DNA of 64,000 bases from Spirogloea muscicola (taxonomy: Eukaryota), in contig WELB01000007.1 of the NCBI GenBank assembly GCA_009602725.1, positions 1,192,310 through 1,256,309 on the forward strand, written 5' to 3'. Each line of letters starts with the position of its first letter. Within the stretch, counting starts at the first letter, position 1. Both the position numbers and the translations under genes were made by a program. Positions 6,150-59,200 of the stretch are shown piece after piece. Below the pieces are notes generated by a model. That model did not search any database, was not told the origin of the DNA, and saw only the letters and a program-made list of their open reading frames with translations.

Positions 6150-8830
6150 TCCGCTAATCTAAGCTTCCTATTTCTGCTGTCGCGGGGGTTCGAGATGCGC
6201 CCTGATTGCCTAGCCAGTGCCTCCACTGATGTACTCGTGAACACCCTCTGTATGCACCGCTGGGTCTTAAGCCGCTCGTTTGTCATGTGCAGCCGCGTTC
6301 TTTACCCCCGCCTCTCCTCACCCCTCGGCGCAACGAGGCCCTCCCGCCCTCCCCCTCGCCCGACGCTGCCGCCCGCGCCTTCCCCTCTCCTCCTCACTTC
6401 CCCACCCAATCTCCCCACCCCCTCCCTTCCTCCAACCCCACTTGTCCTCGCAGTCTTCCACCTCAGCCCCTCCCCCCATGAATGTATCAACACCATATTC
6501 CGCAGCGACTCGCCTGCTCTGCTCTCCTGCCACGCCCCTCACCAGGCCGGCCCAAACCTCTGCGCGCGCAAGGCCCCCTTAACCCTTTTCTTCTCGCGCC
6601 TTCAGCCCTCCTTCCCCCACCGCCTGCACGCCACCGCACTTCTAGCCTCTAGCGCACGCCGCCCGCCGAGCTTGGGCCCCCGCCTCCTCCCGACGGCTCT
6701 CCGCTCTGCCCGCGCCAGTCTCACTTCCGACGCCCACTCCTCTCCCATCTTGCCCATTCCTTCGCGCTGACCTTCGTCAGCCATTCGCCTTTAAAAGCTG
6801 CTGCTTCTGCTATTCGCCATCCGGCGCCTGCCTGCAGCCCGCCTCCCGCGTGACGGGACGGCCGGCGGCTTGGGGGCTGGGGCACGCGGGGCCGCCGGCC
6901 GCATCGGACGGCATGCAGCTGCTGCGCGCCACCGCGCCCGCACATCCCGGCCGTCCGCCGGCCGCGGCCAGGCGCCGGTCCTGTCCGGCGACGTGATCTC
7001 CCGCCCCGGCTGGCCCCACCCGTCCAGCCCACAGCCAGCCGCTTTCAGAGAATTGAGGATAGGGGCTGGACGGGCTTTCGCCCTCTCCTTTCTTCTTTTC
7101 TTCTCCATGCCCACTAAAGGGAGACTACTTTCTCTAATCGGCAGCTGCTCGACAGGCGGGTTTGAGCACCAAGTGGCCACTTGAATCGCTGTGTGCTTTC
7201 ACGCCTTTCTGGCCCCTTCGAACTTCGTTCCTCTTTTTCCTGGGCTGGCAAGTCACACACCATACTGGAAGAGTCTCTCTCCTTGCACTCTCAACCAGCT
7301 CTTGCGCTTCGTGTCGTCCTCCGCGCTCAACTTCACCACGTTCAGCGCAACCTGTCCTTCCTGGCCTCTCAGTTGCTAGTCGTTTGGATCTTCGGCTCCT
7401 CACTCGTACTTACTAAGTGGTTCATCCTACCCCCGTTTTGAAGTAGCAACTTTGGCCCCTTCGTTCTTTGGCCCCTTCGCACCTTGTGAAATTTTTAGGG
7501 CTGGCTTATCACAGCCCTTGCCCCTATTGGGAGAGCCACTTCTTCGCAGTGGCCAGCAGCGAGCTGGCCAGAGCAGGCAGCAGCTCAGGAGACCGGGGCT
7601 GCCGAGACATGTTTAAGCGCAAATGGCGATAGCCGCGTGCGAGCCAGCTGCTAACGTGGACGGCCAGGTGCTGCTCGGCAGGAGCAGGCGCTCCGCCGGG
7701 ACTCAAAGTGGCGGCATCACCAAAAGTCGGAATAGCTCTTCCGAAGTAAGGGATGGCTGTGAGAGGCCAGCCCGATAGTATGAGATCACCACAATGGCGC
7801 CACGAGAGGACGATTCTTGTAGGGGGCGATGCCTGTGGCAATAAAGCGTAAAGAGAGAGTGAGAAGGGCTTCCAAAGGAGGCGATGGCTGTGAAAGAAGC
7901 AGCAGCTCGGTCAGAGGTGGGCCAGGGCTGTGAAAGCAAGCCCACAACGACTGAACGAATTTTAATTGGCCGGGAAGCACTGCTAAGAAAGGCTGCTCAG
8001 TGACCCCTAGTCGGCAGCCGCAAGCAAGTCAAGAAAGTCAGCAAGTCAAGGAAGTCAGCAGCTTGAAAGAAGAAAGCCATTCCAAAGGAGTCGCTCCGCC
8101 TACATCCTCGGGCGGCAGCCAGGGCACAATGACCAGCAGATGCAGGGCATGTGCCAGAGAGAAGCTGCAGGGAAACACGAGGGCCAGAGAGACCGCAGCG
8201 CTGACGACTGCTCGCTCCGCCCGATTTGGCTTCCGTTTCGTTTCATGCGTACCGCACGCCTCCTCCTCTCTTTGCAGACCTTGTTCATTCCTTTTGGGCT
8301 GGCCTCTGACAGCCATTGCCTACATTGGAAGAAAGTGGCTCTTCCAGAGAGAAAAAGAGAGAGACTCTTTCAAGAGAGGGCGATGGCTGTCATTGGCCAA
8401 CCCAGGAGAAAAAAGTGAACAAAGTTCGAAGGGGCCAGAAAGGCGTTTCCGAAAGAAGAAGCGCCTCTCACAAAGGGGGGCAAGGGCTGTGAGAAGCCAG
8501 CCCGAAAAGAATTGACTTCCGAAAGGCCGGCACCAAAAGGAGGGCGAGAGAAGAAGAGAAGTGGCTCTCCTAATGGGGGCAAGGGCTGTGAGAAGCCAAC
8601 CCAAAAAAGAATTGACAAGGTTCGAAGGGGCCAAACTTCGAAGGGGCCAGAGGCGCAAGCTCTTAATTAGGGAACGATGAATCACTCAATAACAACGAGT
8701 GAGGAGCCTCAAATCCGACAGACTAGCTGGCGGAAAAACAATTCCCTGACAAAAGCCAGAGGCAAAAAGGTTTCGTGTATTTGAAACAATCGAAGGCCAA
8801 AACGGCCAAGTACAAAGGCAAGCACATCTG
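6150..8830. mobile_element. Cluster of nested, 5'-truncated RLE/CRE-like retroelement 3' ends in both orientations
   Basis: C-terminal remnants at about 6165-6195 (+, FLLSRGF), 7135-7165 (+), 7374-7416 (+, ASRLDLRLLTRTY*), 7997-8200 (-, SLAHALHL...RLPTRGH*) and 8686-8760 (-, PPASLSDLRLLTRCY*). Many GGCCCCTTCGAAC and GGGCTGGC..CAGCC 3'-UTR motifs are interspersed. Confidence 0.8.
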
Positions 8831-8854
8831 ATGACGTAGCAACTAGCACTTAGC

Positions 8855-58800: not shown

Positions 58801-59200
58801 TCAATGGGCGAGCCCTCCTCCTAAAAAGCTTGGAGCAGCTACAAAGGGGCCTGAAGATGCTATGGCAGAACAGGGGGAGGATGGATCACTCAGTAGTTAC
58901 GAGTGAGGAGCCTCAGATCCGACAGACTAGCTGCCGGAAAGAAGAAAACTATCCACCTGACGAAAGCCGGAGGCCGCAGCGAGAGCACGGCCAGAAAGAG
59001 GAAGACTGTTCCAGTAAGGAGTGTGTACCGAGTGATGGGGGGCCTGAGTGGCCAAGTACAGAGGCAAGCCAACGGGGGCTACTGACACGGGGTTACTAAT
59101 AATAAATAAGAGCGCCTTGCTTGCCTACCCAGTGGCTCCGCTAACATTTGTGAACACCATGCTGCATGCACCGGCCTGGCTCTCACAGCCGCTCGTCAAC
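55875..59200. mobile_element. Nested cluster of CRE-like retroelement 3' remnants between DYAD copy 2 and GolS copy 2
   Basis: C-termini at about 55880-55910 (+), 56800-56830 (+), 57548-57720 (-), 58290-58588 (+, SDLHLLTRGY*), 58890-58990 (-, SDLRLLTRNY*) and 59075-59099 (+, LLTRGY*), with many stem-loop motifs; a (GA)n tract at about 57314-57337. Confidence 0.85.

Follow-up and report, generated by a model that had tools for sequence, protein, structure and literature searches.

Background

Why should the remnants of retrotransposons gather in front of genes, while the introns of the same genes hold none? The question is raised by 64,000 nucleotides of DNA from Spirogloea muscicola (contig WELB01000007.1, positions 1,192,310 to 1,256,309; this whole 64-kb stretch is called the window below), in which the 3' ends of retrotransposons that lack long terminal repeats (non-LTR elements) and carry a restriction-like endonuclease (RLE) are clustered just upstream of gene starts. 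Non-LTR elements of the RLE type are known for residing at specific sequences in ribosomal DNA (rDNA), small nuclear RNA (snRNA), spliced-leader or telomeric repeats, and some LTR elements, Tf1 among them, are known to target RNA polymerase II (Pol II) promoters. If a high-copy RLE family were restricted to the 5' ends of genes, the R2-like machinery, which is now used in genome engineering, would have a third mode of targeting, and duplicated gene copies would offer a countable test of targeting against selection.

The pattern in the window is real and strongly non-random. The explanation that we favour, giving it an even chance on the strength of sequence comparisons, is that the elements insert preferentially where DNA is open and unmethylated at the 5' ends of genes, and afterwards into remnants already in place. 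All results on location come from one 64-kb window with five independent loci and are to be read within that window, not genome-wide.

Identity of the elements

The elements of the clusters are 5'-truncated RLE-type non-LTR retrotransposons of several subfamilies. The longest copy, on the forward strand at 36420..38496, retains a 5'-truncated reverse transcriptase (RT), a CCHC knuckle and the RLE, interrupted by frameshifts and stops. Its decayed RT motifs at 36468-36900 align to full-length relatives, which scored with RVT_1 in 12/12 cases, and the gene model P0001 gave a weak score; the window fragments alone gave no Pfam match. The knuckle has the form C-x-C...H-x3-C and is followed by HD, E, RxD and D motifs, and across 21 sequences the residues C157, C159, H172, H186, E207, D227 and D242 are invariant, in the order CCHC knuckle then RLE. 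AlphaFold models the C-terminal 385 residues of the longest copy with a pLDDT of 85, and the top seven Foldseek matches to the predicted structure of this C-terminus are all R2 proteins. A single open reading frame (ORF) with an N-terminal zinc finger is present in the full-length relative L002 (1069 residues, with zinc finger, RT and RLE) and in P0001, the window itself being without a full-length copy. No LTRs were found, and 5' truncation goes together with target duplications, as is characteristic of RLE non-LTR elements. Summed contig depth drops about 7-fold between the 3' end (880,000) and the RT (130,000), and on division by 135 it suggests thousands of 5'-truncated copies, a rough figure because summed depth is no copy number.

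About seven types of 3' untranslated region (UTR) can be grouped by eye, most of them with a five-pair hairpin and CTT-rich ends. The hairpin is kept in 18 copies, with compensatory change in 0/5 pairs and single-copy folding z-scores of -2.9 to +1.0, so that a role for it in the RNA can only be inferred. Its conserved core (e.g. 10760-10783) starts with TGGGCT, which we take to be a match to the plant 'site II' promoter motif.

The RLE domains in the window are 34-61% identical to one another, and the closest homologues of the element proteins are gene models of Spirogloea muscicola itself, with up to 95% identity; relatives also occur in Klebsormidium nitens and Closterium. Of 429 metagenomic candidates for related loci 0 were confirmed, and of 12 from viral contigs likewise 0; a second metagenome scan found 3 of 146 to be related (each 1-4 kb, too short for gene context), and the ESM Atlas returned solely unnamed RVT_1 clusters. 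Many predicted proteins of Spirogloea muscicola (26 models) contain fused element ends, a point of relevance to annotation. Among the gene models, P0006 is made up of about nine repeats of a C-terminal piece of the RLE, which suggests that parts of elements are arrayed in tandem on another scaffold, and the distant relatives P0100 and P0123 have a ubiquitin C-terminal hydrolase domain after the RT and RLE.

Distribution in the window

A sequence-only reading of this DNA had reported about 17 ORF C-termini of the DLRLLTRGY* type in six clusters. We recovered 17 LLTRGY-type C-termini, three of them frameshifted and placed by their flanks, but positions 197-15613 (copy A) and 49905-64000 (copy B) form a duplicated block with 87-90% identity, so the first and last clusters, 6150-10815 and 55875-59200, are one locus present twice. 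With three pairs of termini common to both copies, 14 independent termini and five independent clusters are left; they are numbered 1 to 5 along the window, the duplicated cluster being 1A and 1B. The genes that they adjoin resemble DYAD, GolS, WDR6, GBA2, PRMT, BBX and ALF4, the names DYAD and ALF4 being presumptive and given by motif. The copies differ about as much as other homoeologous contigs do in the DNA run, and copy B is therefore either a homoeolog or a mis-join. Single-copy contigs have a depth of about 135 and gene bins a summed depth of mostly 300-600, which fits about three copies per gene; we assume that the genome of Spirogloea muscicola is triplicated. An account that puts this genome at 174 Mb mentions three copies of one gene (PMC11096116).

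Three kinds of search agree on where the elements are. Matches to a 3'-UTR hairpin pattern lie inside the named clusters in 16/16 cases, as do 26/26 matches to a hairpin matrix that exceed the best score from shuffled sequence (20.4 bits), the matrix having been trained on the 16 pattern matches, which are themselves all inside clusters; its four matches outside reach 12.9-17.1 bits, and shuffles yield 5.7 per window there. BLAST with 126 cluster tiles, a set that excludes GC-rich parts and long ORF interiors, gave a best score outside the clusters of 30.1 bits against 28.3-33.7 in 10 shuffles, with no match above this null. The depth of DNA contigs, which covers 10821-41000 (tile BLAST and hairpin matrix cover the rest of the window), is 110,518-882,444 in 8/30 bins of 21001-41000, all in clusters, and 191-1,062 in the other 22/30; over 10821-23125 it is 189-810 in 30/30 bins. 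Background depth is thus seen in 52/52 non-cluster bins, among them those over the introns of WDR6 and GBA2 and over one convergent junction, and tiles, matrix and depth found no element piece in the introns of the WDR6-like and GBA2 genes, which bears out the earlier observation that these introns and the convergent gaps are free of elements. Since one unbroken contig runs over 22263-23382 with 0 differences, the junction of WDR6 and cluster is not an assembly artefact.

Elements occur in 5/5 independent intergenic stretches with a gene 5' end and in 0/3 convergent ones (Fisher p=0.018). If insertion into non-coding DNA were uniform, five seeds lying upstream of an ATG within 700 bp of host DNA would have a probability of about 9e-5 to 1e-4, given 45% coding sequence as an assumption and a 700-bp zone chosen post hoc. 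Families merely 34-36% identical occupy the same clusters. Inserts as short as 27-90 nt are also missing from introns, although inside these genes homoeologous contigs differ from the window by segments of 58-179 nt. The RLE-type identity of the elements, their promoter-side location and their nesting, all proposed from the sequence, are thereby supported in the window. The further proposal that the remnants make up most of the promoter DNA holds in part: by a strict within-window test 82% of the WDR6/GBA2 cluster and 94% of that at PRMT are recognised as element, as against 31-45% of the DYAD/GolS clusters (where more decayed ORF remnants are visible by eye) and 19% of 44610-44810.

Comparison of the duplicated copies

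Over 10.6 kb of aligned gene body, copies A and B show no indel of at least 25 nt, whereas about 15 element pieces differ in the promoter block of about 4 kb, four of them with an empty site or target duplication and some maybe losses. Three copy-specific or nested insertions have exact target duplications: an A-specific element 3' end of about 27 nt (7057..7090, reverse strand), flanked by 6-bp direct repeats and facing an empty site in copy B; a B-specific element 3' end (56140..56230, reverse strand) flanked by a 7-bp duplication; and an element 3' end of about 75 nt (58372..58447, reverse strand) that lies antisense within the RLE ORF of another copy, with a duplication of 10-11 bp. The fourth, an A-specific 5'-truncated copy nested in an older remnant (7377..7554, forward strand), has a short imperfect target duplication, and its site is empty in copy B.

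These counts bear on the possibility that insertion is random and that purifying selection removes copies from introns and UTRs, with neutral build-up inside old copies. Nested sites are neutral, all window copies are fixed or old, and a 3'-end hairpin with pyrimidine tracts could disturb splicing or 3' processing, as such an account would have it. The gain or loss of some 15 pieces in the promoter block has to be set against 0 in 2 x 10.6 kb of gene body, however, and introns are without even antisense pieces of 27-90 nt. Because pieces this short are missing from introns and the gene bodies show no indel of that size, selection alone is argued against; the roughly three copies per gene indicated by depth should moreover relax selection, and we regard this account as improbable.

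The same comparison speaks to domestication, the idea that promoters retain the remnants because these provide start sites or cis-elements; the sequence-only reading had proposed cis-elements and methylation boundaries as things that they may contribute. Upstream of the GolS ATG the copies share only 22-25 nt, beyond which the DNA is unrelated and the gene-proximal pieces are wholly different, with sense-oriented element ends abutting the shared part in both; copy A of GolS is transcribed, and the oldest subfamily supplies the gene-proximal piece at DYAD, at the ALF4-like gene and at copy B of GolS. The GolS-proximal piece belongs to a separate subfamily in each copy, however, and remnants shared by A and B are 79-88% identical, no better conserved than gene bodies (88-89%; gene 5' ends reach 92-94%), so that conservation does not support domestication, an explanation that we hold to be highly improbable.

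CpG signal and choice of target

The observed-to-expected ratio of CpG is 0.35-0.49 in gene bodies and 0.8-1.0 at gene 5' ends. Between copies A and B, CpG transitions affect 98/335 sites in gene bodies and 23/198 at gene 5' ends (p=2e-6), while the GpC control is flat (90/770 vs 23/257, p=0.25); gene-proximal cluster DNA, with CpG transitions at 11/86 sites, is like gene 5' ends. From the CpG decay in gene bodies we infer that these are methylated and gene starts unmethylated, and because gene bodies are CpG-depleted and gene starts resemble CpG islands, the elements probably target DNA that flanks promoters and is open and unmethylated. All CpG-rich islands found lie next to a cluster or overlap one, barring those at the two zinc-finger (ZF) gene starts, where the sequence upstream is masked or gapped; the convergent gaps are poor in CpG and hold no elements.

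No fixed target is apparent, the four target duplications being unrelated in sequence. Element 3' ends join other copies at no fewer than seven different positions, without a common sequence (among the joints listed, 12 of 408), and two of the four dated insertions lie in DNA not recognised as element. The elements might nevertheless recognise their own sequence in the manner of the algal element Zepp, with clusters grown from old seeds that came to lie near genes by chance. Nesting is indeed common, both in the window and in contigs from elsewhere in the genome, but the lack of a common target at the four duplications and seven joints and the insertions outside recognised element DNA tell against such self-targeting, which would also leave unexplained why 5/5 seeds are on the 5' side; we consider it very improbable. 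Two classes of conventional target were tried and rejected. For telo-box or telomere-repeat targeting, AAACCCT occurs five times in the window and 0 times in clusters, and the target duplications are unrelated; for tRNA or snRNA targeting, the 64 kb hold 0 tRNA genes and 0 Rfam matches.

Under preferential insertion at gene 5' ends, elements would insert by target-primed reverse transcription as in R2, the region being chosen by chromatin access and not by a fixed sequence. The endonuclease would reach DNA mainly at unmethylated gene starts, clusters would grow by nesting, old remnants being harmless landing space, and selection would likely trim insertions between the gene-proximal remnant and the start codon.

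Several points weigh against this mechanism. Cluster interiors decay like gene bodies (16/68 CpG sites, p=0.38), yet they gained new copies, and the sample is one window with only five independent loci. Cluster 4 lies only about 70-175 nt past the ALF4-like stop codon and 665-770 nt from the BBX ATG. Since the convergent gaps are short, with no more than about 540 nt at GolS/WDR6, and transcription may run through the whole of them, the data do not tell 'promoter' apart from 'any untranscribed intergenic DNA'. Fused gene models served as a proxy for sites elsewhere: among 56 proteins examined, 13 are informative in having an element plus a long non-element stretch, and in these the element stands before the host-like part in 10 and after it in 8 (5 both), with no clear asymmetry. 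In two of the fused models, P0003 and P0156, the element adjoins a host protein at its middle or its end, and in two it adjoins sequence that by our own reading is gypsy-like or virus-like.

Much of this would suit an alternative without promoter targeting, in which copies land or survive in any untranscribed intergenic DNA; with convergent 3' UTRs abutting in this compact genome, such DNA would exist nowhere but upstream of genes. The short GolS/WDR6 gap, the place of cluster 4 just past a stop codon and the 8/13 fused models with the element after the host-like part agree with it, as does cluster 3, which occupies the space from about 870 nt past the GBA2 stop up to the PRMT start. That every cluster adjoins a CpG-rich island, while the convergent gaps are CpG-poor and empty, counts against it, and a mechanism excluding introns would still be required; we judge this alternative unlikely.

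Comparison with known systems

The nearest parallel in organisation is the CRE group (CRE1/2, SLACS, CZAR, Cnl1, MoTeR, FoTeR), which shares with L002 a single ORF with zinc finger, RT, CCHC knuckle and RLE; target duplications are common to both, and the C-x-C...H-x3-C knuckle followed by HD, E, RxD and D motifs is found here too. Accounts of these features give spliced-leader genes or telomeres as the targets of the group and generally a poly(A) end (PMC12278014, PMC12857005, PMC7175516). The elements of the window, in contrast, have CTT/TCT-rich ends, no fixed target and likely thousands of copies, and lie at Pol II gene starts; neither a poly(A) tail nor spliced-leader or telomeric insertion was found at them, their targets being unrelated and without an Rfam gene. 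Measured against the CRE REL spacing C-X1-3-C-X7-8-H-X3-4-C-X9-10-RHD/N, the C-X1-C and H-X3-C parts fit, the motif is AHD, and the knuckle spacer has 12 residues as opposed to 6-8 in the CRE group. The family works like a CRE-group element; it is not filed as CRE because the poly(A) tail and fixed target are absent, and the homology searches turned up no named CRE reference.

R2 (PDB 8iby, 9dou, 8gh6) has the same C-terminal linker and RLE fold and the nearest solved RT for a full-length relative, with 15-17% identity; it is specific for one 28S rDNA site, and four of the five RLE clades are described as mostly target-specific (PMC4640811). A like class of target, Pol II promoter regions, is used by Tf1 of Schizosaccharomyces pombe, an LTR element guided by its integrase with Sap1 or Atf1 (PMC7175516), whereas the element here is without a known tethering factor. 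Zepp of Coccomyxa is likewise an algal LINE (long interspersed nuclear element) with clusters of nested copies, reported as one cluster per chromosome, probably centromeric, and as having two ORFs, one Gag-like (PMC3446292). Here, by contrast, five independent clusters lie within 50 kb and flank nearly every gene start seen. EhLINE, whose endonuclease is RLE-type, and EhSINE of Entamoeba are also non-site-specific non-LTR elements. Their hot spots depend on local DNA structure and a nicking consensus is described, in a paper whose abstract makes no mention of promoter-side nesting (PMC1635306). TRE5 of Dictyostelium and Ty1/Ty3 are also position-specific, upstream of genes in compact genomes (PMC5911963), but they target Pol III genes, and the window has no tRNA or Rfam gene. 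Further background is given in PMC10088271, PMC13519894 and PMC6186995.

Literature searches whose coverage left out most subscription papers, Repbase and the species' genome paper returned no description of this element family, nor any of clustering by RLE elements at the starts of Pol II genes, and the high-copy RLE family is apparently undescribed. We think doubtful the wider proposition that, in a close algal relative of land plants, a non-LTR lineage seeks out unmethylated Pol II promoters across the whole genome and has remade the DNA upstream of most genes. If it held, element ends with a rapid turnover would contain the host's start sites and 5' UTRs, as at GolS, and promoter divergence would be driven among the genome's three gene copies.

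Host genes and individual clusters

Pfam supports the GT8, WD40, GH116, PRMT and B-box genes and their strands, which are also fixed by spliced RNA joints (run X5, judged from contigs). Copy A (197..15613, forward strand) comprises a ZF gene, the DYAD-like gene (reverse strand, in-frame ATG at 5916), a cluster, the GolS-like GT8 gene (10848..12766, forward strand) and the 3' end of WDR6. A spliced RNA contig covers 11238-12766 of GolS with 0 differences; no RNA contig lies over its 5' part, 10821-11231, and contigs cannot show start sites. The sequence-only reading had placed element termini within about 40 nt of a candidate GolS start, and the candidate upstream ATGs at 10848 (copy A) and 59257 (copy B) are indeed 33 nt and about 42 nt from an element end; in both copies they can be joined in frame to the GT8 domain via GT-AG introns of 192, 99 or 69 nt. 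The WDR6-like WD40 gene (13306..22834, reverse strand, ends approximate) is supported by Pfam WD40, by spliced joints of the CT..AC kind and by contig depth at background level. The ORF at 13962-15149 was rejected as a separate gene with an element-free promoter, since spliced joints connect it to upstream minus-strand exons. The GBA2 (GH116) gene runs over 25967..35530 on the forward strand, its start being uncertain; one bin in it, 34341-35007, has about twice the usual depth (1,062), possibly from a small low-copy repeat of another kind. The distance from cluster edge to the nearest placeable in-frame ATG is 203-296 nt at five starts (the GBA2 ATG being uncertain) and 665 nt at BBX. Positions 1-120 are 120 T residues immediately 5' of the first gene start, probably masking or gap filler, which puts this gene's promoter beyond assessment; single N letters stand at 9900, 44250, 49904 and 56270.

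Cluster 2 (23130..25370), between the divergent WDR6-like and GBA2 genes, has four termini at 23993 (+), 24381 (-), 25049 (+) and 25299 (-), among them those of an RLE ORF at 23339-24013 and, at 24506-25072, of a distant family with 34-36% amino acid identity to the others. Cluster 3 (36400..38790), past the 3' end of GBA2 and before the PRMT start (ATG 38993), has one at 38477 (+). The weak cluster 4 (44625..44727, forward strand) consists of two 3'-UTR fragments between the ALF4-like stop (about 44800) and the BBX ATG at 43960, which match 59032-59070 over 39 nt at 87% and 30 nt at 87%; of the cluster seen earlier before BBX at 44610-44810 these UTR matches remain, with no ORF terminus and a position nearer the ALF4-like stop. 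Between it and the BBX start, 44479-44496 (reverse strand) is a weak hairpin-like match of 17.1 bits, within the shuffled range. Cluster 5 (49760..49903, reverse strand) holds an old-subfamily terminus at 49878 (-), upstream of the ALF4-like gene and beside the assembly N at 49904.

Cluster 1A (6150..10815), between the divergent DYAD-like and GolS-like genes, contains elements in both orientations, with five ORF termini at 6174 (+), 7144 (+), 7396 (+), 8017 (-) and 8706 (-) and about 11 hairpin cores. Its homologue 1B (55875..59215), whose GolS-proximal 1.3 kb are unrelated to copy A, has termini at 55893 (+), 56812 (+), 57568 (-), 58568 (+), 58910 (-) and 59079 (+). Both contain a GC- and CpG-rich stretch (6304-7051 and 56219-56803), about 81% conserved between A and B and not recognised as element, perhaps regulatory DNA of the host or the 5' region of an element. 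At 8850-9880 of cluster 1A lies a tandem repeat with units of about 110-135 nt, likely of a mobile family because its translated motif recurs in P0004 on another scaffold. At 10030-10450 (reverse strand) a genomic piece of a gene for EPSP synthase, consisting of the end of one exon, an AT-rich intron and a whole exon (Pfam PF00275), is joined to a broken element ORF; it lies near the N at 9900, is absent from copy B, and is either a captured fragment or a mis-assembly.

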